From an uncultured bacterium (GTDB taxonomy: Bacteria > Babelota > Babeliae > Babelales > Babelaceae): a stretch of DNA of 64,000 nt. Shown here one piece after another: positions 16,155-55,724 of this stretch; position 1 is the first letter of the stretch, and the number at the start of each line of letters is the position of its first letter. A program made the position numbers and the translations under genes. Location: positions 1,344,001 to 1,408,000 of the forward strand of contig CAWFXL010000001.1 in assembly GCA_963819815.1 (NCBI GenBank). Reading direction: 5' to 3'. A model generated the notes under the pieces. The model did not search any database. It saw only the letters and a list, made by a program, of their open reading frames with translations, and was not told where the DNA came from.

Positions 16155-17504
16155 TTATCTTTTTTTCCCCTGAGTGGTGGTAGCTGGAGCAGCTTTAGCT
16201 CTTCTCACTACAGTTGGGGGCTTTGGTCCTGCGTTTAGGCGCCTGATCCCTGGCTGTGGATTTGGAGCATTTCTCGTAGTACTCGTTGTACTCGAGGATG
16301 ATGACGTGTTTTTCGGTAGCCTTCTTTGTACTGTTCTTCTAGTATTTGTAGTGCTGGTACTCGAGGAGGAGGTACTTCTCGCAGGTTGATGTGCAGGGGC
16401 ATACTGAGGTCTTGTTGCTGAGTGCTCGTATATCAGCGTTGTCACAAGGGTGTTCTTATTGGCGCCATAGCCTAGTTGTCCTATTTTGAACACTTCCTGC
16501 TCGCTGCAAGGTGTAATAGTCTCATCATTGCAATAATACCATTCATTGCCTGCTTTTACATAGGCGGTATAGTGGCCAGAGTTTGCTGATCCGCTATGCA
16601 TAATGATGCTAACAACTTCATAATCACCGCAACTTTTTGATGGATCTTTAAAACAGCGATCAAATGATTGGTTATACAGATCAAATGAAATAGGATTTTC
16701 ATGTCGAGTAAACGTAGGTACTGCTTGTCCTCGTGTTCTCCGTATAAAGTTTTTTCTATCTAATGAACAAATAACATATCGGCCAGTTCTTTGAAGAAAG
16801 GTATGGCGCTCTCCATCGACAGGTCCTAGTCCTTCAATAGCTACAGCATCGAATGAAGGCTGAGAGAAAGATTGTAAACATTCGTTAATATTTCTACTTT
16901 CTGGAAGTACCTTCAAACTAAGGCAAGGCGAATACTGGACTTCTTTATCTGACTCGAAAAATCCGACTTCACCTAGATCTGCATAGGCCTTACTTTCAGA
17001 AAACACATAAAAGAGTTGTGCTAGATCAGTTTTGAGTTCTTCAGGATACTGTGCAAGATCTGAGTCGTTTGGCTCGTCGTGACGTGCAAAAAGTGGCCAC
17101 TTGGTATCTTTAACATCTTTGTAGGTAATACATTCTAAGAGCTCTCGTAAGAGTTCATTGGCATCAGCCTGATCGCAGGGATCATCGTTGAGTTGATGCC
17201 ATCCACGAAAGCAGAAAGTCGACGGGTCAATTTCGTCATCATCTGTATCTGAATGCATGAAATGTGGTAATAAATCTGTATAGGCCTCGGCAAGGCTATC
17301 TTTCTTGTACACACTATCTTTGTTCTGCTGGTTAAGCAAGTAGGTGATGTCCTGCATAGCATAGACTGCCTGAAGTGCTGCATTCATAAAGCAGTTTGAG
17401 CCAATGTTTTTGAGCGGAGCTGGTTTGAGCGGCTCCATGCATATTATTGGAGTCATATAGCTCATAATGACGATGTATAAAAGGGTCTTAGTTTTATGTA
17501 TCAT
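16155..17504 (-). CDS. Secreted USP-family (peptidase C19) deubiquitinase with low-complexity basic tail
   Basis: Cys box LKNIGSNCFMNAALQ, QADANEL, His box IIMHSGSANSGHYTAYVK..WYYCNDETI. Confidence 0.88.
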   Translation of the reverse strand: MIHKTKTLLYIVIMSYMTPIICMEPLKPAPLKNIGSNCFMNAALQAVYAMQDITYLLNQQNKDSVYKKDSLAEAYTDLLPHFMHSDTDDDEIDPSTFCFRGWHQLNDDPCDQADANELLRELLECITYKDVKDTKWPLFARHDEPNDSDLAQYPEELKTDLAQLFYVFSESKAYADLGEVGFFESDKEVQYSPCLSLKVLPESRNINECLQSFSQPSFDAVAIEGLGPVDGERHTFLQRTGRYVICSLDRKNFIRRTRGQAVPTFTRHENPISFDLYNQSFDRCFKDPSKSCGDYEVVSIIMHSGSANSGHYTAYVKAGNEWYYCNDETITPCSEQEVFKIGQLGYGANKNTLVTTLIYEHSATRPQYAPAHQPARSTSSSSTSTTNTRRTVQRRLPKNTSSSSSTTSTTRNAPNPQPGIRRLNAGPKPPTVVRRAKAAPATTTQGKKR

Positions 17505-17528
17505 AATGCACTCTTGTTATTTTTAAAT

Positions 17529-18653
17529 CTATTTTTTATTAAGTATACATAATTTTATCAAATTGTAAATACCAGAAGATGAGCTTGATGATCTTGTTGA
17601 ATAGGTAGGGCGTGCGCTGGATAACTCATAGATAAAGGTTGTAGCTACAGAACCATTTTCTGTAGAGCCTTGTTGTGAAATGCGCGTCATGCTTTCTTCT
17701 GAAACTGGTGTAACAGCAGCATCATCACAAAAGTACCACTGGTTTCCTAACTTTGAGTAGGTAGTATAATGACCACCGTCTGCGTTGCCGCAATGCATAA
17801 TGACGGCAATAAGTTCATAGGGACCTTTACTTCTTTCCTTAAGGAGGAAATAGGGAGAAAGATCGAGCTTATTTAGGGGAAAGCTGATGCGCGCATCTTC
17901 TTTCATGTATGAGATTCCTGCTTGCCCTCTATGCCCTTCTTTTCGGTCGAGCATAATGAAAAGATAGTTTTGTGTTTCCTCGAGAAATCGTCTGTTAGCC
18001 CCTTCAATTAAGGTATCTGGATCGCTTCTAAAATGTTCGCTTTGGCTTTGAAAATACCGGTCAAGGCAGTTTGAGAGAGTCTTATCTTCGGGTCGCACTT
18101 CTAAGCTGAGTCCAATGGTCTGCTCTGGCGATTTGGTGCCGATAAAAGCCTCATTTTTGGGATCTATTCTTAGATGGCGGATATGTACATAAAACAGTTC
18201 TGAGAGCTCCGTTCTCATCGTTGGAATCTGAGTTCCTTTATACTTGGGATGATATGGCTTGTACTCATCATTAATGTCAGTCTCGGTAATATGGTTGAGA
18301 ATTGTTGCTAAACAGTCATTTGCATCTCCTTGTTCACGTTCGTTCATCCCAAGGTGAGCATATATGCTGGTATGGAGTTCCGCGGGGCCTATTGAAGAAC
18401 TTTGTGCGGTGCGAAGCTGGATGGCGCAATCTCTTAAGAGAGCAGACAGGCTACCCGGCTTGAGGTAATATCCATGCTCGAGTGCCATCGACACTAAATC
18501 TACCGATGCATGCAAAGCTTGAAGGCTCGCATTAATGAAGCAGGCATTCCTCTGGTTGACCAGTCCTTTAGGGATATAGATGTTGTTTTCTCCCATGCCA
18601 AAGGCACTGGCCGGTAGGCATAGTAGAGCGATACTGAATAGTTTGTGTACCAT
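17529..18653 (-). CDS. Secreted USP-family (peptidase C19) deubiquitinase
   Basis: Cys box GLVNQRNACFINASLQ, EQGDANDCL, His box VIMHCGNADGGHYTTY..WYFCDDAAV. Confidence 0.88.
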   Translation of the reverse strand: MVHKLFSIALLCLPASAFGMGENNIYIPKGLVNQRNACFINASLQALHASVDLVSMALEHGYYLKPGSLSALLRDCAIQLRTAQSSSIGPAELHTSIYAHLGMNEREQGDANDCLATILNHITETDINDEYKPYHPKYKGTQIPTMRTELSELFYVHIRHLRIDPKNEAFIGTKSPEQTIGLSLEVRPEDKTLSNCLDRYFQSQSEHFRSDPDTLIEGANRRFLEETQNYLFIMLDRKEGHRGQAGISYMKEDARISFPLNKLDLSPYFLLKERSKGPYELIAVIMHCGNADGGHYTTYSKLGNQWYFCDDAAVTPVSEESMTRISQQGSTENGSVATTFIYELSSARPTYSTRSSSSSSGIYNLIKLCILNKK

Positions 18654-24567: not shown

Positions 24568-24578
24568 GAGGTGACATC

Positions 24579-26232
24579 ATGGCAGGAAAAAGAATATTAT
24601 TTGGAGCTGAAGCACGTCAAAAGACTTGCAAAAGGTGTTGATACTCTTGCTGATGCAGTAAAGGTAACTCTCGGGCCCCGTGGTCGTAATGTTGCTTATG
24701 AGAAGAAATTTGGTGCACCGGCTATTACCAAAGATGGTGTAAGTGTTGCAAAAGAAATTGAACTAGCTGATCCTATTGAAAATATGGGCGCACAAATGGT
24801 TCGTGAAGTAGCAAGCAAAACTGCTGATGTTGCCGGTGATGGTACGACCACAGCTACGGTGCTTAGCGCAAGCAATTTTTCGAGAAGGTAATAAATATGT
24901 TACTGCTGGTGCTAATCCTATGGAAATTAAACGTGGTATTGATAAAGCGGTTGCCGTTGTCGTTGAAGAGATTAGAAAACTGCTCGAAAAGTAAGCGACA
25001 AAAAAGAGATTGAGCAAGTTGCAACTATTTCTGCAAACTCTGATTCGACTATTGGTGAAGCAGATTGCTGAAGCAATGGAACGTGTTGGTCGCGATGGTG
25101 TTATTACCGTTGAAGAAGCAAAAGGCATGGAAAGTGAAATTTCATTTGTTGAAGGTATGCAATTTGATCGTGGCTATATTTCTCCTTATTTTGTAACTGA
25201 TCAGGAAAAGATGGAAGCAGTGTTACAAGATCCGTATATTCTTCTTTATGAAAAGAAGATTTCAAGCATGAAGAGCTTGCTTCCGATTCTTGAACAAGTT
25301 GCAAAATCTGGTCGTCCTCTCTTAATTATTGCAGAAGATGTTGAAGGTGAAGCTCTTGCTACCTTAGTAGTTAATAAGCTTCGTGGCACATTGAATGTTG
25401 TTGCAGTAAAAGCTCCAGGCTTTGGCGATCGTCGTAAAGCAATGCTTGAAGATATTGCAACATTAACCGGTGGTAAACTGATTTCTGAAGATATTGGTTT
25501 AAAGCTTGAAAATGTACGCTTAAAGATCTTGGTCATGCTAAGAAAGTATTAGTTACCAAAGATACCTTCACTATTATTGAAGGTGCAGGAGCATGATGCG
25601 GCTATTAAAGGTCGTATTATGCAAATCAAAGCTCAAATTGAAAATACAACATCAGATTATGATAAAGAAAAACTGCAAGAACGTCTTGCAAAACTTTCAG
25701 GTGGTGTTGCAGTTATTAAAGTTGGTGCAGCAACTGAAACAGAAATGAAAGAAAAGAAAGATCGTATTGAAGATGCACTACATGCAACACGTGCAGCAGT
25801 TGAAGAAGGTATTGTTGCTGGTGGTGGTAGTTGCATTACTTCGTGCACAAGCAGTTGTTGAAAAACTTAAACTTGAAGGTGATGAACAGCTTGGGGTGCA
25901 AGATTGTAGCGCGTGCACTTGAAGAACCACTACGTATTATTTCTTCAAATGCTGGCTTTGAAGCTTCAGTAGTTGTTAATCAAGTTCGTCAAGAAACAGG
26001 CAATATTGGTTTTGATGCAAAAACTGGCGAATATGTTGATATGATTGCAGAAGGTATTATTGATCCTGCTAAAGTAGTGCGTTCTGCATTTCAAAATGCA
26101 GCATCTATTGCTGGCTATGCTCTTAACGACTGAAGCGCTCATTACTGAGATTCCAGAAGATAAGAAAGAAGTAGCCATTCACATGGTGGTGGAATGGGCG
26201 GCGGTATGGGTGGCATGCAAGGCATGTACTAA
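24579..26232 (+). pseudogene. groEL: Chaperonin GroEL, broken as sequenced by about 9-10 single-base indels (probably sequence error)
   Basis: [13 protein letters not shown] start, [57 protein letters not shown] and GGMGGGMGGM tail are all present across frame changes. Confidence 0.9.
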
Positions 26233-26337: not shown

Positions 26338-26389
26338 GGATTGCATTCCTACTTTTTCATAAAAAAACAGGGAGTGCAATCCATAGTCA
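26338..26389. repeat. 52-bp direct repeat (copy downstream of the ATPase) containing two pseudo-palindromic 12-mers 33 bp apart
   Basis: GGATTGCATTCCTACTTTTTCATAAAAAAACAGGGAGTGCAATCCATAGTCA; 50/52 identical to 27728..27779. Confidence 0.9.
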
Positions 26390-26445: not shown

Positions 26446-27678
26446 TTAATAAAGAAAGCCAAATAACCACAGTGGGATTTTTTTACCAATTCCATTTTCT
26501 ATGCTATCAATGGCAAGAAAGGCATTGTGTTCTCCTATGATCTGCTCACTGGATTTTTTGCGTCCTCCTATCTCAAAAAGATAAGTGCTATCAACTAGGA
26601 AATCAGCCTTAGGAGGTAGTTTGACGTGGTGTCTTTCAGAAACCATGGTAAGAAAAAAGAGCTCTCTTTCAGTTCCTATATGCGGATCTTCTTGGCTAAA
26701 GGCATTCATTTGATTTGGATTATCAAGATACACCTTCTCTGAATGTTTTAGGTGGTCGAGTTTATGGTTTTCCTTTCCTAGTGACCTGATAAGGGAGGCG
26801 TCTTCAAGATAGGAAAAGTAGGTTTTTAAGGTGCGAGTATCTCCTACATCGAGTATTTCTTTAATGTTATTCCAGTTTGGGGTAAAAGGTACCGATTTCG
26901 CTATGAACAATAAGAGTTCTTTAAGTTTAGTTATGCTGAGACCATTTAAATGTGGATAGATTGCTGTAAGATCCGCTTCTAGTGTACTTTGAAGATTTTG
27001 CACGAGCGTAATGACATAGAGTTCTTTATTCGGGAGCTCTAAAAAGTACGGATAGTACCCATACTTTAAATAGTACTGAAAGAGTGGCAGAACCTTGTGA
27101 TTCTTTTCTTCAAGGGCTTTAATGATCTCATCGGCATACTGTTCATGATGCTGAAGAATAGTGGAAAGCTCGAGAGCTTTTAATTCTATCGGCACATACA
27201 ATTCAAGAAACTCGCGAAATGAAAGCCCTACCATGTGATATTTGATGGCACGGCGCGCTAGATCGTGACTTCCTTGGTATACCTGAAGTGCTGAGCTTCC
27301 TGAGGTGACTACGGTGAGCTTAGGAAATGTATCGTAGATGCTTTTAAGTTCTTGAGACCAGTTAGGATACTTATGGATTTCATCAAAGGCTATATATTTT
27401 CCACCCATAGCGGAAAATTCATCAGCGATTTCATAAAGGGACGTTGTACCCATTAAAAAATGGTCGGCTTGAACATAGAGAATTGAAGGATCATAGAGGT
27501 CTTGTGACACCTTGTCCAACAAAAACTGTACAAGGGTCGTAGTTTTTCCAATGCCTCTTTGTCCCAATAAGAGAGAAAGACGATGCTTAAATGGTTGAGA
27601 TTGGATGAAATAGCGCCGATAAGGCGAGTTTTTAAGTTTTAAAAAGCCTTGGCTTAATTGTCTCAGCTCTTCAAGCAT
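26446..27678 (-). CDS. AAA+ ATPase (AAA_14/DUF4143-type) with a PD-(D/E)XK-like C-terminus
   Basis: Walker A GQRGIGKTT, Walker B AFDEIHK, SGSS, GLSFREFL, GYYP, ADFLVDSTYLFEIGGRKK; AGGAGG RBS. Confidence 0.88.
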   Translation of the reverse strand: MLEELRQLSQGFLKLKNSPYRRYFIQSQPFKHRLSLLLGQRGIGKTTTLVQFLLDKVSQDLYDPSILYVQADHFLMGTTSLYEIADEFSAMGGKYIAFDEIHKYPNWSQELKSIYDTFPKLTVVTSGSSALQVYQGSHDLARRAIKYHMVGLSFREFLELYVPIELKALELSTILQHHEQYADEIIKALEEKNHKVLPLFQYYLKYGYYPYFLELPNKELYVITLVQNLQSTLEADLTAIYPHLNGLSITKLKELLLFIAKSVPFTPNWNNIKEILDVGDTRTLKTYFSYLEDASLIRSLGKENHKLDHLKHSEKVYLDNPNQMNAFSQEDPHIGTERELFFLTMVSERHHVKLPPKADFLVDSTYLFEIGGRKKSSEQIIGEHNAFLAIDSIENGIGKKIPLWLFGFLY

Positions 27679-27693
27679 ACTGACCTCCTGGTG

Positions 27694-27779
27694 TGGATTG
27701 CATTCCTACTATATTCTATCAAATTATGGATTACATTCCTACTTTTTCATAAAAAAACAGGGAATGCAATCCATAGTCA
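27694..27779. promoter_or_regulatory. Three pseudo-palindromic operator-like boxes at a 33-bp period upstream of the ATPase
   Basis: GGATTGCATTCC 27695, GGATTACATTCC 27728, GGAATGCAATCC 27761. Confidence 0.75.
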
Positions 27780-43881: not shown

Positions 43882-45027
43882 TTATTTTGCTTTTTGTTGA
43901 GCACATTCCTGCTTGTGGCCGGCATTCCAATCTTGTTTCTGACAATCTTTATTGCAATAATAGAATTTCTTACACCCACTGCATATTTTAAGATCCTCTC
44001 CCCGGTTGCCACAGAAATGGCACCAAGTACTTGTGGCGACAGGCTCGCGTTCTTCCTGCTCATGCTCAAGACCATAGCAAGCTCTTATGAAGCTTTCAAA
44101 GGGGGCATGGGAGTTTCTTTTTAGGCAAGCCACAAGAGCCGATTTATGGCGTATAGCATCGGTAAAATGAACTGGGCGAATGCCATGTTGAGCATTGATG
44201 AGATACAAACAAAGCCTTCCTAATCTTTTTGAGCCCTCTTGAAAAGGGTGAACGCGCACAATATCATAATGGAACTTAGAGCTAATGGATAGTACCTTGT
44301 TCTGACGTTCTTGCCAGGGAAGGTTCTTTATGGCAATAACGGCATTCTGGGCCTCTTCTAAGGCAGCTTGAAGTTCCTTTTCGATAGTTTCTATTGGAGT
44401 AAAGAGGTATATTGAATTTTTAAGGAGAGCTTTTTCCTCGTCCGTGAGCGGATTGAGTAACGTTGGAAATTTTTGGACTTCAAGACTATTGCGGAATTTC
44501 TCAAGAGATTGTGGTGTGGCAGTAACTTCTTTTCGTTTCAGCAAAAAGACAATATAGGACCATTCTTTGGTACATATTTCTTCTCTTATTTGCCAGGTAG
44601 CTTCATCTACTCTGAAGGCTCCGGGTTCTGATACCTCAGGATCGAGACGCGTAAGCCAGGAAGATAAATTCTTGATATCGGTGATGGTCCAACTTTCAAA
44701 TGGCTTTGCAAGGAGGGTTGTTCTACTTCTGTAAAGAGCATAGAACCAGCCCAAAATGACGCACATTTCTTCATTTAGTCCCTCTGCTTTGGCTTGATCC
44801 CTTGTAGAAATATTAAGCGTGGTTGCAAGGAGGGCAGCAATTTTCTCTGGCTCTTGTGAAAAGTTATGTGATGCACCTTGATAGGCTGCATCATAAGTTA
44901 TATTGGGCCATTTCGTGATGGGACTGTCCTCAAATAGTTTTTCCTTACTCAGGCACAATAGAGAAGGTATGGCCAGGAGGACCATCAGAGCTAACATTGG
45001 TAGACGTGCATTTCGTGTAGTCATCAT
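43882..45027 (-). CDS. Secreted Fic/Doc-domain + MYND zinc-finger protein (paralog 3)
   Basis: FHYDIVRVHPFQEGSKRLGR; CHFC..CSGCKKFYYCNKDCQKQDWNAGHKQEC; signal peptide. Confidence 0.85.
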   Translation of the reverse strand: MMTTRNARLPMLALMVLLAIPSLLCLSKEKLFEDSPITKWPNITYDAAYQGASHNFSQEPEKIAALLATTLNISTRDQAKAEGLNEEMCVILGWFYALYRSRTTLLAKPFESWTITDIKNLSSWLTRLDPEVSEPGAFRVDEATWQIREEICTKEWSYIVFLLKRKEVTATPQSLEKFRNSLEVQKFPTLLNPLTDEEKALLKNSIYLFTPIETIEKELQAALEEAQNAVIAIKNLPWQERQNKVLSISSKFHYDIVRVHPFQEGSKRLGRLCLYLINAQHGIRPVHFTDAIRHKSALVACLKRNSHAPFESFIRACYGLEHEQEEREPVATSTWCHFCGNRGEDLKICSGCKKFYYCNKDCQKQDWNAGHKQECAQQKAK

Positions 45028-45035
45028 GAAGATCC

Positions 45036-46214
45036 TTAATTCTTGGTTTGGGGCGATGGCTTGGTTAGGCACTGTTTTTTGTGTTGAGCTATCCAGTCAT
45101 CCTTTTGGCATTCTTTAGAGCAATAATAGACTTCTTTGCAGGCCGCACATCGCTGAAATCCTTCTCCTTTTTTCCCGCATTTTCCGCATGCAATGATCTG
45201 AGTGAGAGAGAGATTTTTTAAACCTTCTGGTGTTACCATTTGATCTTTGTCAGCAGGTTCCATCGGCTTTAATTTCGCCTCCTCGGCTTCCAAGCATCTT
45301 CTAAAATAGGCTTCAAACGGTAGATGAGATTTTTGAAGAAGGCATTCTATGAGTATTTGATTATAGGCTGCTGGATCGGTAATCTTGAGGGGTTTAATGC
45401 CATGCTGAGCATGGATGATATATTCGCCAAGTCTTCCTAAGCGCTTGGCTCCTTCTATAAAAGGATGGATGCGTACGATATCATAATGAAACTTACATCC
45501 AAGAGAAAGGGCTTGTTGCTGCCTTTGTTTCCAGGGAAGTTCTCGTATACGTCTAAGTTGTTCTTGTATATTCGTCAGGGCAGTAGTGAGTTCTGCTTCA
45601 ATGATATCTTCACTCAGAGGGAAAAGGTGAACTGATCTTCGCAGTAAGGACTCTTCTTCTTTGGTGAGCGGAGCATAAAGGTGAGGCTCATTCGGATGCG
45701 AGCTTTTGACTCGTGCAAGGAGCATTGCATCTACGGAGAGCAGTATTTTTTGGTTTACCAAACTTTTAATATGCTTCCATTCTTCGGCCGACATCTCTCG
45801 TATTTGCCAATAAGTTGGTTCGCCTATGTATCTGAAAGTGCCCGGATGTTTAACATTCTTGTGAAAAAAAGTGATCCATGCAGAAAGGTACCGAATATCC
45901 ATAAGGGACCATGTTTCAAAAGGCTTGGTGAGAAGCTCTTTTTGAGTCTCTTCAATAGCCTTACACCAACCCATGACCGTGCAGGTTTCTTCATCCCACT
46001 CTTCTTTTTGTTCAGATAATGCTTTTGCTTTGGTTGCAACCTTGTCCGTATCATAGCGTGCACCTTGATAGGCCAACGTAGTAACTGTCTGAGGCCACTG
46101 CGTTAGAGGAGCATCTTGATATAAGCTCTGTTTTTCTTGGAGAACCATGCCATGCACCAATGGTGATGCAAAGCTCATAAGAATACTAAGAAGGGTAATC
46201 TTGTTAATAAGCAT
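45036..46214 (-). CDS. Secreted Fic/Doc-domain + MYND zinc-finger protein (paralog 2)
   Basis: FHYDIVRIHPFIEGAKRLGR; CGKC..CAACKEVYYCSKECQKDDWIAQHKKQC; start moved to ATG 46214. Confidence 0.85.
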   Translation of the reverse strand: MLINKITLLSILMSFASPLVHGMVLQEKQSLYQDAPLTQWPQTVTTLAYQGARYDTDKVATKAKALSEQKEEWDEETCTVMGWCKAIEETQKELLTKPFETWSLMDIRYLSAWITFFHKNVKHPGTFRYIGEPTYWQIREMSAEEWKHIKSLVNQKILLSVDAMLLARVKSSHPNEPHLYAPLTKEEESLLRRSVHLFPLSEDIIEAELTTALTNIQEQLRRIRELPWKQRQQQALSLGCKFHYDIVRIHPFIEGAKRLGRLGEYIIHAQHGIKPLKITDPAAYNQILIECLLQKSHLPFEAYFRRCLEAEEAKLKPMEPADKDQMVTPEGLKNLSLTQIIACGKCGKKGEGFQRCAACKEVYYCSKECQKDDWIAQHKKQCLTKPSPQTKN

Positions 46215-46218
46215 GCTC

Positions 46219-47415
46219 TTATACCTTTTGCTGTTCTGCAATTTTGGCACATTGCTTTTTGTGGCCAGCCTTCCAATCTTTTGTTTGGCATTCCTTGCCA
46301 CAATAATAAACAGCTTTGCATATACTGCAGCGCTGCTTTGAATCTTGTTTTCCGCAGGTAGCGCAGCTTGAACTGCTGGCTACGCTTGTTTGGTCGGTGC
46401 TTTCTTCAACAGCTGCAAAGTTCAATAACATGAGCCGTAGGTGTTCCTCGGCAGAGATTCTCTTCTGAGGGCCCGCTGCCTGGGCGGTGCTTTTGAGAAG
46501 ATTATCGTAGCGATCAACATGAGTCTTATAGAATTTTTCAAAGGGCCTATGCGTACCCTCTTTTAAGCTACCTAGCAAAGACTGCGTATATGCTTCAGCG
46601 TTGATAACACAGAGTGGCATTATGCCATTCTGGGAATGTATAATAAACATACCTAGTCGGCCCAATCTTTTTGCAGCCGCTTTGAAAGGATGCACTCTTA
46701 TGATGTCAAAATGGAACTGACATCCGAGTGAAAATGCTTTTTGTTGTCGTTGTTCCCAAGGAAGAGCCCTGGCTTTTGCTAGTTCTTGCTTGAGTGATTC
46801 GAAAGCTGCAATGAGCTCTTTTTTTACATCATCACCTAGAGGAAAAACGTAGACAGTTTCATGTAAGTATGCTTCTTCTTGGGCTGTTAAGGGTTGCAAT
46901 AGTGCCTTCGGGCGTTCCTGAGGATTGTCGACGTATTTTCTTCCTGATGGGGTGTTAACGACTTTTCTAAAGAGTAATGTGTCGAATTTTTCAGTTTCTG
47001 CTTTTGATATCTTACGAAAAGTCCAGCGTACCGGCTCGGTCCTTATAGTTCGAGGATCCTTCTGTGATGATCGTAAGAGCCATGCAGCGAGTTGTGAAAG
47101 ATCATCAAAAGTCCACGTCTCAAAAGGTTTTTTAAGGAGATTCTTTTCAACTTGTTTGACGGCATATATCCAGTCCTGAATGACCCACTGCTCCTCCTGG
47201 GGAAGTGCTTTGAGAGTCTGCTCGAATGCTTCTTTAGAGCTTACTGAATAGTCGTAAGTAGCTCCTTGGTAGGCATTGTCATAAATAGACGTGTTATTGC
47301 TCCAATCGGTTAGTGGTTCATCTTGGTATTGACTCCACTTTCCTTCAGAAAGAATCATGGCATTCATCGAGGAAACGCCCATTATTATGGTAAAAATCAG
47401 TATACGTAATTTCAT
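46219..47415 (-). CDS. Secreted Fic/Doc-domain + MYND zinc-finger protein (paralog 1)
   Basis: FHFDIIRVHPFKAAAKRLGR; CATC..CSICKAVYYCGKECQTKDWKAGHKKQC; signal peptide. Confidence 0.85.
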   Translation of the reverse strand: MKLRILIFTIIMGVSSMNAMILSEGKWSQYQDEPLTDWSNNTSIYDNAYQGATYDYSVSSKEAFEQTLKALPQEEQWVIQDWIYAVKQVEKNLLKKPFETWTFDDLSQLAAWLLRSSQKDPRTIRTEPVRWTFRKISKAETEKFDTLLFRKVVNTPSGRKYVDNPQERPKALLQPLTAQEEAYLHETVYVFPLGDDVKKELIAAFESLKQELAKARALPWEQRQQKAFSLGCQFHFDIIRVHPFKAAAKRLGRLGMFIIHSQNGIMPLCVINAEAYTQSLLGSLKEGTHRPFEKFYKTHVDRYDNLLKSTAQAAGPQKRISAEEHLRLMLLNFAAVEESTDQTSVASSSSCATCGKQDSKQRCSICKAVYYCGKECQTKDWKAGHKKQCAKIAEQQKV

Positions 47416-51499: not shown

Positions 51500-52573
51500 A
51501 TGTATTCTATGCAAAAGACACGATTCCGTTACTTTCTGAGTGGTGCCTTATTGGTCTCATCATTAGCGGTTCTTACCGGATGTGACGTTTTTAAGCGAGC
51601 ATCATGTCCAGCGTGCGGGCCTAGCGCAGAAACTGCTAAACCAGAAGACGTTATATTGTCTATCGATGGTGTTCCCGCGATTACCAAACAAGAATTTGAA
51701 GAATTTTATGCTACAGCAACTGCGAATTCAGGACCTTATGGGGCTCTTTCGAGGAAAGATGCCTATGATACTTTGAAGACTATGGTACTCCTCGATCATA
51801 AAATGATCAAAGAAGGCAAGGACAAAGATCCTGAATATCAAAAAGAGTTTCGTCGTGCCTTTAATTTAGCAAAATGGGGCGTTAACTCCCAAATACTTGC
51901 AGAGGAACTTAAAAAGACTATAGATACTTCTGACGCTGCGATCGAAAGCTTCTATAATGAGGCGAAAGGCAAAAATCCTGCCTTTGATCGTCCACCGTTC
52001 CTTAAGAATCCGGAAAGCGTAAGCGTCCAGTCAGTCGAATTTACTGATAAGAAAGCTGCTGAAGAGTTTCTTAAGAAAGCAAAATCTGATTTTGCTGGAG
52101 CGGCACGTGCTGCAAATCTCTCTATCAAGGACCTTGGAAAAGTCTCTGCGCAGTCTCAAAATGTTGACTTTGCAGTTCGCTTAAAAGCACGTACACTAGC
52201 TCCTAATGCTGTTGAGCTTGTGGCTTCGGGTGATAAGAAGTTCTTTGTTATTAAGGCTGGTGCTAAGTCCCCTTCACAATATGCGGAATTTAGTGAATTG
52301 AAAGCTATGCCTCAAATGACCGAGATGCTTGCCCAGTTTAAGAGAAGTGTTGAGCTTGAGCCTGCATTCCTTAAACGCATTGAAGAGTATAAGAATGAGT
52401 TCAAAATAGATGAAAGCCTCAAATATTTTGAAGAAGCAGAAGCGAAACAAAAAGAAGAAGAAGAAAAACTTCGAGAAGCTTTCGCTCAAAAAATGCAAGA
52501 GCAAGATGGAGCACAGCCTGAAACCGAGGCTCCAGCTCAAGCAGCTAAACCACAAGGTGTAGTTGCAGGCTAA
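51500..52573 (+). CDS. Lipoprotein foldase (PrsA/PpiC-like, divergent)
   Basis: Lipobox LTGC; V.L.IDG...IT..EFEE SurA/PrsA-type N-domain; parvulin-like segment DFAGAARAA...DLG. Confidence 0.65.
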   Translation: MYSMQKTRFRYFLSGALLVSSLAVLTGCDVFKRASCPACGPSAETAKPEDVILSIDGVPAITKQEFEEFYATATANSGPYGALSRKDAYDTLKTMVLLDHKMIKEGKDKDPEYQKEFRRAFNLAKWGVNSQILAEELKKTIDTSDAAIESFYNEAKGKNPAFDRPPFLKNPESVSVQSVEFTDKKAAEEFLKKAKSDFAGAARAANLSIKDLGKVSAQSQNVDFAVRLKARTLAPNAVELVASGDKKFFVIKAGAKSPSQYAEFSELKAMPQMTEMLAQFKRSVELEPAFLKRIEEYKNEFKIDESLKYFEEAEAKQKEEEEKLREAFAQKMQEQDGAQPETEAPAQAAKPQGVVAG

Positions 52574-53173
52574 TTAAAGCACTGATATTATAGAAAGAAA
52601 GGGGATCATCACGGTCCCCTTTCTTAGTTATTTGGAGTCTTTTATGAACTATGCGATGCGTATTTTCTTGCTGGTGGCGCTGGGTACCGTAGTAACCCAA
52701 CAGACCCAACCGGGTGGTCGAGCTATTACAAAGTGGATTATGGGTGGCCGAGTTCCTACCTTTCTTGATGCTTCCATTAAAAGGTGGATTATTCATGATG
52801 GGAAAACTATGGCTAAACTTAGGTTGACCAAAAATGGTTATACTGATGAAGCCATTGAGGAGGCGCTTGCTCGTGTGGGGTATACTATTTTTAGAGAGCA
52901 GGCATGGGAGCGAACATATAGGGCATATAGACTAACGATGACCCATGAAGAGGCGATAGCGCGAAGCAAAGGGAAAAAGAAAAGTTTCGGGAAGCTTGCA
53001 TTCAAAAAATAAAAACACAGGACAAAGCCTGAAGCCGAGGCTCCAGCTCAAGTAGCTAAACCACAAGGTGTAGTTGCAGGCTAAGCAAAGCACTGATATG
53101 ATAGAAAGAAAGGGGATCATTATGGTCCCCTTTCTTAGTTACGAGGAGTTTTTCTATGAACTATGCGATACGT
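52430..53173 (+). repeat. Tandem duplication of the foldase 3' end, terminator, RBS and next start codon
   Basis: About 52515..52661 recurs at about 53026..53173 with few differences; weaker similarity extends roughly 80 bp further upstream. Confidence 0.9.
52644..53012 (+). CDS. Chimeric hypothetical protein between the duplicated junctions
   Basis: Begins MNYAMR (compare MNYAIR of 53156); its 3' end is homologous to the foldase 3' end in another frame. Confidence 0.5.
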   Translation: MNYAMRIFLLVALGTVVTQQTQPGGRAITKWIMGGRVPTFLDASIKRWIIHDGKTMAKLRLTKNGYTDEAIEEALARVGYTIFREQAWERTYRAYRLTMTHEEAIARSKGKKKSFGKLAFKK

Positions 53174-54232: not shown

Positions 54233-54316
54233 AAAAGAGCCGGTTCTTTTATATAAATCTTGCTAAAAAGAGCCGGCTCTTTTATTCTATAGCTTAGAAA
54301 AAGAGCCGGCTCTTTT
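54233..54316. promoter_or_regulatory. Three 18-bp palindromes at a 33-bp period overlapping a sigma70-like promoter
   Basis: AAAAGAGCCGG(T/C)TCTTTT at 54233, 54266, 54299; TTGCTA (54260) -N17- TATTCT (54283) brackets the middle copy. Confidence 0.85.
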
Positions 54317-54365
54317 TAACTGAGGCTGAATTTAATTGAGTGATTTAATGTCTAGGAGAGCGCCC

Positions 54366-55724
54366 ATGAATCGCACCTGCATGGCTTTTCTGAAAGAATG
54401 GCTTATCGCGCCCACGCGCAAACCGCTTATTATTCGTGGAGCACGACAAGTTGGCAAAACCTGGGCAGTGAGACATTTAGCAGAATTAGAAGGTTTAAAG
54501 CTCGTTGAGTTCAATTTCGAAAGGAATCCGGAGTATGCAGATCTCTTTGAATCGAATGATCCAAAAGAAATTATACGCCGCATTGAGCAGCGATTTGCCG
54601 TACGGGTTGATCCAGGCAAAACACTTTTGTTTCTCGACGAAATTCAAGCAAAACCTGAACTTATAGAAAAATTGCGATGGTTTTATGAAGAAATGCCGCA
54701 ACTAGCTGTTATCGCTGCGGGGTCCTTGTTAGAATTTGTTTTAGGCGTCCATGCTCTCAAGATGCCTGTGGGTCGCGTGAGCTTTGCATACCTTGAGCCG
54801 TTGTCATTTATTGAATTTCTTCAAGCTCAACACAAAGATCAGCTTGTTGATCTTATAAAATCATACACCTGGAATGAGGAAATTAATAAGGTAGTCCATG
54901 CAGAGCTCATGAGGTTATTTAAGGAATATGTATATGTTGGAGGGCTTCCAGGAGCAGTATCTGAGTGGATTGAGGGAGGGTCTCTCGCAAAAACCAATGA
55001 GATGCATAATGATTTATTGGGCTCATATAGAGCAGATTTTAGTAAATATAGTGGTCGGGTTTCTCCCGATATTTTGAATGAGGTTATAGATACAATACCT
55101 CTCTCTTTAGCCAAAAAATTTATCTATAGTCACGTGCAAACGGATGCCTCGCTTGTCCAGGTTAAGGCAGCGGTGCAGCTCTTGACCCGCGCTCGCGTAG
55201 CCAGTGCAGTGAAAGCTACTGCTGCAAATGGCATACCTTTGGGGGCTGAGGTTAATGAAAAGTTCAACAAGATGATTCTTCTTGATGTTGGGTTATGTTC
55301 TGCATTGCTTGGTTTACAGTTGGGACAATTGGAGGATACTGATGAACTTGATCTGGTTAACAAGGGTGGTATTGCAGAGCAAGTTGTTGGACAGCTGCTA
55401 CGCACTATAGAACCATGGTATATCGAGCCAGCGCTTTATTATTGGACTCGAATTGAGAGAGGCGCTGAAGCAGAGATAGATTATGTTATCCAGCACGGCA
55501 CTACCGTGGTGCCTATAGAAGTCAAAGCAGGCAGTTCAGGAAAATTAAAGTCACTCCATTTTTTTATGCAGATCAAAGGGCTATCGACCGCAGTACGTTT
55601 TTGCTCGGGCCTGCCTCAGATAACTCAGGTATCAGTAAAAGATACTCAATCCAGTGAGATTAACTACGAGTTACGATCTATGCCATTTTACCTTATCAGT
55701 GAGCTTCATAGGCTGCTTGCCTAA
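54366..55724 (+). CDS. AAA+ ATPase (AAA_14 + DUF4143) with a PD-(D/E)XK-like C-terminus
   Basis: RKPLIIRGARQVGKT, LFLDEIQ, AAGSLL, PVGRV, PLSFIEFL, VGGLP, AEIDYVI..VPIEVKAG; AGGAG RBS before ATG 54366. Confidence 0.9.
   Translation: MNRTCMAFLKEWLIAPTRKPLIIRGARQVGKTWAVRHLAELEGLKLVEFNFERNPEYADLFESNDPKEIIRRIEQRFAVRVDPGKTLLFLDEIQAKPELIEKLRWFYEEMPQLAVIAAGSLLEFVLGVHALKMPVGRVSFAYLEPLSFIEFLQAQHKDQLVDLIKSYTWNEEINKVVHAELMRLFKEYVYVGGLPGAVSEWIEGGSLAKTNEMHNDLLGSYRADFSKYSGRVSPDILNEVIDTIPLSLAKKFIYSHVQTDASLVQVKAAVQLLTRARVASAVKATAANGIPLGAEVNEKFNKMILLDVGLCSALLGLQLGQLEDTDELDLVNKGGIAEQVVGQLLRTIEPWYIEPALYYWTRIERGAEAEIDYVIQHGTTVVPIEVKAGSSGKLKSLHFFMQIKGLSTAVRFCSGLPQITQVSVKDTQSSEINYELRSMPFYLISELHRLLA

Follow-up and report, generated by a model that had tools for sequence, protein, structure and literature searches.

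Short arrays of repeated sites with a 32–33-bp period are a real and family-wide feature of the DNA upstream of a known, widespread family of ATPase-nuclease genes, two members of which (hereafter gene A and gene B) lie in the window, i.e., the 64,000-nucleotide stretch of DNA analyzed here. The comparisons establish the occurrence of the arrays across the family, their fixed period, their position on promoters, the stronger conservation of sites than of spacers and the linkage of site sequence to protein clade, together with a protein anatomy in which the catalytic residues are intact and a fast gain and loss of the genes. It seems probable to us that the arrays are cognate operators for autoregulation, to which an ORC1/STAND-like protein made up of AAA+, winged-helix (wHTH) and PD-(D/E)XK domains would bind next to its own gene. 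The features at the two loci are as follows, in window coordinates.

54233..54250, no strand: array A site 1, an 18-bp near-palindrome
54266..54283, no strand: array A site 2, a perfect palindrome inside the spacer of a weak promoter-like pair
54299..54316, no strand: array A site 3, with TTAACT at the downstream position (clade norm, a TTGAC −35 box)
54260..54288, forward strand: candidate promoter TTGCTA-17-TATTCT, 8/12 to consensus, kept in the 91% orthologue
54354..54358, forward strand: Shine-Dalgarno-like AGGAG
54366..55724, forward strand: gene A, 452 aa, AAA_14 plus DUF4143, PDC-S01
26446..27678, reverse strand: gene B, 410 aa, AAA_14, PDC-S01-like, of another subfamily than A
27695..27772, reverse strand: array B, three imperfect 12-bp palindromes at 27695, 27728 and 27761 with a 33-bp period
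27728..27779, reverse strand: upstream copy of a 52-bp direct repeat, consisting of two array B sites and their spacer
26338..26389, reverse strand: downstream copy of the same direct repeat (52 bp, 96% identity), with sites at 26338 and 26371

Periodic arrays at the two loci and across the family

The unit of array A, AAAAGAGCCGG(T/C)TCTTTT, is present in three copies whose 15-bp spacers all differ, and their starts at 54233, 54266 and 54299 are exactly those claimed in an earlier sequence-only reading of the window. The site is unique in the 1.64-Mb genome even with one mismatch allowed. The same reading had placed the middle copy in the spacer of a TTGCTA-N17-TATTCT promoter, and here the geometry stands, with TTGCTA at 54260 and TATTCT at 54283 framing unit 2 across a 17-nt gap, but the promoter itself is weak: at 8/12 it falls under the threshold of the promoter scan, which returned 0 promoters over array A. 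The start of gene A is likely the ATG at 54366, with AGGAG just 5' of it, which is where the homologue alignments begin.

Gene B had been credited with the same layout of three sites at 33 bp, built on a different palindrome. Three such sites are indeed found, but the gene-distal unit has the opposite orientation to the other two, and two further sites lie downstream of the gene (26338 and 26371). In array B the −35 position is covered by the middle site, and the site next to the gene comes after a TATAGT −10-like hexamer (27708–27713), as in close relatives. Judged by eye, the B 12-bp motif is retained in 5 of 5 close relatives of B (52–67% identity), and among the B relatives one site contains the −35 while the next comes just after the −10. 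A 3-unit cut-off was reached at 7 of 31 B-type loci as compared to 1 of 30 downstream regions, with some of the starts mis-called. In a sample of 151 genomes from the order, which had missed several genus members that later proved positive, B had 2 matches, and no B relatives were found in viral contigs.

The genome as a whole (G000), of which the window is C1:1344001–1408000, contains 20 strong AAA_14 matches of the A/B type, 19 of them with DUF4143. With a 3-unit score, the upstream regions of 8 of these 20 genes (A 49.4, B 39.5) outscore every one of 720 control regions (maximum 28.6), and all eight have a period of 32–33 bp; the controls were simple ORF calls of the same genome that had 100 or more non-coding bases upstream. 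A less strict rule, chosen once the period was known, is passed by 11 of the 20 family genes and 8 of the 720 controls, so that 9 of the 20 fail even this rule. Homologous loci that include an N-terminus number 141, of which 133 are unique and have sufficient upstream DNA; the best direct pair falls at a lag of 32–33 upstream in 76 of these 133 and downstream in 2 of 124 regions, and a 3-unit array is present in 52 of 133 vs. 1 of 124, counts that overstate independence because the loci, which take in five from G000 and many related Bacteroidota, are related to one another. The 32–33-bp period is kept from Dependentiae to Bacteroidota, and 12 of 24 loci on viral contigs are positive. The ~33-bp periodicity that the sequence-only reading expected upstream of the family is therefore enriched in both comparisons (8/20 vs. 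0/720; 76/133 vs. 2/124), while its rule of three palindromes per gene does not hold, as two units are present in 28 of the 36 A-clade arrays and three in 8.

Within the A clade the spacing between units is 33 bp (29 times), 32 bp (14 times) or 34 bp (once) in a search restricted to 32–34 bp. The A-clade site matrix was trained on the upstream regions at 32–34-bp spacing only, which means that the contrast obtained with it (36/51 vs. 0/48) is not an independent test. Genome-wide, A-clade site pairs number 9, and all of them lie beside A-clade genes or at one relic.

A second group of ATPases of ~480 aa, probably of the ATPase_2/PDC-S27 type, has arrays of alternating orientation with a 25–30-bp period (e.g., G000:C1 77819, 220638, 602887, 1013370, 1505919, and 726425); array period looks subfamily-specific. 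The top-scoring controls (G000:C1:1271934, 820583, and 1018624) resemble regulators or defence genes that stand alone and have inverted repeats upstream, and their N-termini read as helix-turn-helix, AbiEi-like and AlbA-like. At G000:C1:927161–927525, the intergenic region between two divergent family genes holds a longer palindrome in two copies, unlike the 33-bp arrays.

Promoter position, site conservation and specificity

Sites of the A clade share the frame AAAA-S-A-V-SSSS-B-T-S-TTTT, and in most members the last site directly abuts a TTGAC −35 box. Under a promoter rule of TTG..-16/18-.A...T with at least 8/12 matches, a sigma-70-like promoter lies right after the last site at 23 of 31 A-clade loci and after the first site at 1 of 31, many of these promoters being near consensus (9–11/12); together with the B clade, judged by eye, this bears out the idea that the arrays are placed on the promoters of the family genes themselves. 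Gene A and its orthologue L031 (91% identical protein) are exceptions within the clade in that the −35 after the last site is degenerate. At A, TTGCTA-17-TATTCT straddles site 2, and a similar layout is seen in a group at 45–48% identity, where the site occupies the spacer between −35 and −10. At many Bacteroidota loci the array stops upstream of the core promoter, a position that would fit activation as well.

Orthologous arrays differ at 2 of 108 site bases compared to 13 of 62 spacer bases (p = 4e-5; two pairs), a contrast that comes mostly from the second orthologue pair, since the A pair alone gives 1 of 54 vs. 2 of 32. GC-rich site cores are better conserved than the spacers. With the arrays on the promoter and sites conserved over spacers, autoregulation appears to be the best-fitting role among those that the sequence-only reading had proposed; the copy-number or foreign-DNA sensing also proposed there stays a candidate role.

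The 33 A-clade loci lie in 30 different gene neighborhoods with one site frame throughout, and therefore the array moves with the gene and not with the host locus. Since different subfamilies in the same genome have different site motifs, a single host regulator is a poor explanation. Site sequence tracks the protein clades, and the sites most similar to those of A are found at its nearest relatives. To what extent this reflects co-evolving, private specificity was addressed with a sliding-window partial correlation between residues and bases, in which no protein window across 34 A-clade loci rose above label permutation (0.222 vs. a 95% level of 0.275); across 20 Bacteroidota loci the top co-varying window, under a permutation that ignores relatedness, was a loop of the nuclease domain (359–367) and not the helix-turn-helix. 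Sites of paralogues within a genome show no significantly greater divergence than sites from different genomes (4.92 vs. 4.52, p = 0.12; 25 vs. 568 pairs), and cross-talk is therefore likely, with any "private" specificity being loose. Of the co-evolving specificity claimed earlier, the correspondence of sites with clades is retained, but neither the co-variation nor the paralogue comparison adds to it, and we regard such specificity as plausible.

Protein anatomy and gene turnover

Both proteins match the AAA_14 domain (A, E 1.3e-21; B, E 6.8e-25). DUF4143 is matched in A (E 2e-27), while B gives no match at the thresholds used, yet has DFLVD/FEIGG motifs at 359/368; the description of each as an AAA_14/DUF4143 protein is thus correct for A and, for B, in its AAA_14 half. 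As single genes, both A and B match the PADLOC PDC-S01 models, A with PDLC04788 (E 3e-146, spanning positions 1–441 of 448) and B with PDLC04787 (E 1.8e-27); no NCBIfam family was matched.

A structure model of A (pLDDT 91, 115 sequences), in which domain names were read from secondary structure, gives an AAA+ domain at ~1–170, a helical lid at 175–228, a winged helix at 234–305 and a PD-(D/E)XK nuclease at 335–452. The best Foldseek matches of this fold are the archaeal AAA+-wHTH ATPases 2qen and 2fna, followed by DNA-bound ORC1/Cdc6 (2v1u and 2qby), with E values of 1e-8 to 6e-6 and TM-scores of just 0.27–0.43; a sequence search of solved structures with A returned P-loop-level matches only. 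Across the 115 sequences Walker A/B, E338, D372, and E385-x-K387 are invariant, and residues 258–266, which form the turn of the helix-turn-helix, are among the most variable stretches. The model agrees with the AAA+, helix-turn-helix and PD-(D/E)XK-like anatomy suggested earlier and points to an ORC1/Cdc6-like AAA+ plus winged helix with the nuclease tail intact.

Gene turnover is most readily followed at locus B, where the gene is bracketed by 52-bp direct repeats built from its own sites. The resulting unit is about 1390 bp long, and between the repeats lies the ATPase-nuclease gene alone, with no restriction-modification (R-M) pair. In the close sister genome G001 (aldolase 95%), gene B is missing at the same site and a single 52-bp two-site copy joins both flanks, its left part matching the upstream copy and its right part the downstream copy. 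A public contig that omits the same 1391 bp was counted as non-independent of G001. The state in G001 may be either pre-insertion or post-deletion, with the polarity going either way. At a distant B-type locus (L210), a two-site array plus promoter is repeated 61–135 bp past the stop codon, as at gene B.

With G000:C1:1–60000 left out of the control, unique direct repeats flank 6 of the 29 family genes in G000, compared with 2 of 376 other genes matched for size (p = 2e-6). ORFs in that segment look far more GC-rich than the remainder, and it is possibly foreign or mis-binned. Of the 6 flanked genes, 3 have a repeat that takes in the array region, and at the other 3 the repeat is made of other sequence. 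Among A-type loci, similarity between upstream and downstream DNA is seen in 10 of 124, several of them REP-like, and a 33-bp pair lies downstream in just 2 of 124. The suggestion of self-mobility is favored by the flanking duplications and the empty site at B in G001, and this rarity of downstream 33-bp pairs speaks against it.

The cases at other loci differ from one another. At C1:96312, G001 is without the gene and without both repeat copies, and a short duplication is not clear. In place of the C1:849318 gene, G001 (L243, G001:C6) carries a single repeat copy together with a Fic-like gene, which reads as a swap of one-gene cassettes at a single site. At C1:225669, G001 retains the upstream region and not the gene. 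An orphan at G000:C1:267987–268250 consists of a two-site array, a promoter, nine codons, a small inverted-repeat element and the final codons of a gene from the A clade; this array is intact upstream of a gene in G001, and the small element also comes after the C1:225669 gene. Gene A itself is missing between its neighbors in five other genus members, and its orthologue in G001 (L002/L158) is split into two frames near codons 87–93 with the array intact, which may be error or decay. No terminal inverted repeats or short target duplications were seen at the junctions of locus B or C1:96312, and profile searches of the window found no transposase-type family.

Elsewhere in the window, a 131-bp direct repeat (91%; 52512–52642 and 53023–53153) with a terminator-like hairpin flanks a small ORF (52632–53012) that lies between two similar-looking peptidyl-prolyl isomerase-type genes and may be another repeat-flanked cassette. 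Genes of the ankyrin, WD40, RING, and ubiquitin-hydrolase kinds are also plentiful in the window. Three tandem zf-MYND genes at 43882–47415, two of them with Fic matches, and two tandem ubiquitin-hydrolase genes at 16155–18653 look like host-directed proteins. A groEL gene (24571–26133) is split over several frames; these splits are probably assembly errors, since single-base indels at 25828, 25899, 26115, and 26171 set a related contig apart from the window.

Probable cognate operators, competing explanations and known systems

If the arrays are cognate operators, each gene would be a one-gene accessory cassette that brings its own operator with it. The encoded protein would bind two or three cognate sites 32–33 bp apart (~three helical turns), probably cooperatively via AAA+ contacts, and in the bound state would occlude its own sigma-70 promoter, which would keep the nuclease low on arrival in a new genome; self-limiting operators of this kind could let many paralogues coexist. 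We infer that the winged helix is the reader of the site and that binding represses, and the trigger that licenses the nuclease may be phage or plasmid DNA, or there may be none. The likeness to an initiator/iteron pair drawn in the sequence-only reading seems apt as an analogy because the arrays are enriched and on the promoter, the sites are conserved and the winged-helix fold is ORC1/Cdc6-like, but it does not extend to one origin per replicon.

The turnover data allow a rather unlikely alternative in which the array serves chiefly for mobility: the protein would assemble on it, its nuclease would nick or cut nearby, and host recombination would move the cassette with a long target duplication. 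The duplicated crossover sequence at locus B would then be the array, and an orphan array would be a landing pad. Such a process would account for the position of B between 52-bp repeats of its own sites and the hybrid single copy in G001, for the excess of repeat-flanked family genes (6/29 vs. 2/376), for the absence of synteny in 30 of 33 loci and for the downstream repetition of array and promoter at L210, and the available text of PMC2853133 describes restriction-modification genes that inserted with a long target duplication. It is weakened by the repeats that fall outside the array region (3/6), by the low counts of downstream 33-bp pairs and of up/down similarity at A-type loci (2/124 and 10/124), and by C1:96312, where the sister site has neither repeat copy nor a clear short duplication. 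Loss by host recombination between the repeats accounts equally well for G001, and mobility makes the tight association with −35 and −10 unnecessary. About as improbable, in our estimate, is the broader proposal that PDC-S01/COG1373 would form a vast one-gene selfish class, not primarily phage defence, whose array would serve as operator and as recombinase-free excision and re-insertion site, with locus B and its empty site as the two states. STAND-REase genes were reportedly proposed as transposon-like by Zhang et al. in 2016. IS or transposon ends were rejected, as no terminal inverted repeats or short target duplication were seen at locus B or the C1:96312 junctions and the profile searches gave no transposase-type family.

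Among the readings that leave the array at the promoter, an activator or dual switch that raises expression of its own gene in the ATP-bound state or in response to an invader would suit the A clade, where the last site stops at the upstream edge of the −35, outside the core promoter, as well as the Bacteroidota arrays that often stop before it. MalT is a STAND activator on phased boxes, and class II activators bind sites ending near −35. However, many of the promoters score 9–11/12, unlike activator-dependent ones, and the sites of other clades, in the spacer or after the −10, are at repressing positions, which makes activation unlikely. It is quite improbable that the repeats go unread by the ATPase, being phased A/T-tract bends or host-factor sites homogenized by slippage or template switching and hitch-hiking with the gene. 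While A- and T-tracts are present in all units, the core varies within a single array and no residue-base co-variation emerged across the 34 A-clade loci, the GC-rich cores are conserved over spacers and subfamily-specific in one genome, the sites are nearly confined to A-clade genes, and the 32–33-bp period extends from Dependentiae to Bacteroidota. RNA hairpins (terminators or attenuators) would explain the T-runs after the palindromes, but we give them hardly any credence: the A sites are loop-free, a terminator scan over array A found none, the Bacteroidota units are direct repeats without dyad, and the arrays are mostly untranscribed because they lie upstream of or on the promoter. Terminators as such were discarded. 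A CRISPR array was rejected given spacers of 15–21 bp, 2–3 units and no cas family among 46 window proteins, and a replication origin given ~20 genes with different arrays that are scattered over one chromosome and missing from orthologous sites in kin.

The operator reading places the family next to several known systems. The encoded helix-turn-helix proteins AbiEi of AbiE, the C proteins of R-M systems and plasmid Rep, on iterons and operators, read inverted repeats at their own promoters; here, by comparison, regulator, switch and nuclease are a single polypeptide, the site period of three turns is constant across the family, and there is no methylase or antitoxin. Archaeal ORC1/Cdc6 on ORB sites has in common with A the AAA+ plus winged helix and repeated cognate sites by the gene, and SSO1545 (2fna) and PAB2304 (2qen) are the archaeal AAA+-wHTH ATPases that gave the best fold matches. 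Relative to all of these, A adds a C-terminal nuclease, and the ~20 copies per genome are scattered and therefore are not replication origins. Recombinase-free inserts of <20 kb between >30-bp direct repeats, with a single-copy empty site, are described in the available text of Furuta, Abe, and Kobayashi (2010; PMC2853133), whose examples include 46–47-bp repeats. Locus B fits this pattern of long target duplication (a unit of about 1390 bp, 52-bp repeats, the empty site in G001 and no mobility gene) but differs in that the R-M pair is missing and the duplicated sequence is the presumed operator of the cassette.

PADLOC PDC-S01/COG1373 is likewise a single gene, with an ATPase fused to a PD-(D/E)XK domain. 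According to the available text of PMC12988326, PDC-S01 ranks fourth in frequency among prokaryotic defence candidates, and the available part of PMC3424549 describes COG1373 (AAA_14 plus DUF4143) as a protein of unknown function. In a bioRxiv preprint (2024.09.26.614923), as far as its accessible text goes, one PDC-S01 coding sequence without upstream DNA was among eight candidates challenged with three phages, and it was not one of the four candidates that protected; PDC-S01 goes unmentioned in the available main text of the PADLOC candidate preprint (10.1101/2024.01.29.577857). The published description covers the protein, to which the upstream 32–33-bp arrays are added here; no published account of them was found in the family literature, whose subscription papers were largely beyond reach. 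Further additions are the promoter-position count, the finding that sites are better conserved than spacers, the specificity tests with their negative outcome, and a locus that has an empty site and whose duplicated sequence is its own array.

PDC-S01 is among the commonest predicted prokaryotic defence genes and its mechanism is unassigned. A family-wide site of fixed geometry is a candidate ligand, and therefore binding, ATPase, nuclease, structure and defence assays become testable, while cloning the coding sequence alone may miss activity. Genes A and B form a natural cross-wise pair for such assays, and the genome has five A-clade paralogues with sites that are related but different. Finally, locus B brings operator and flanking duplication together beside an empty site, and so bears on the recombinase-free movement of cassettes.
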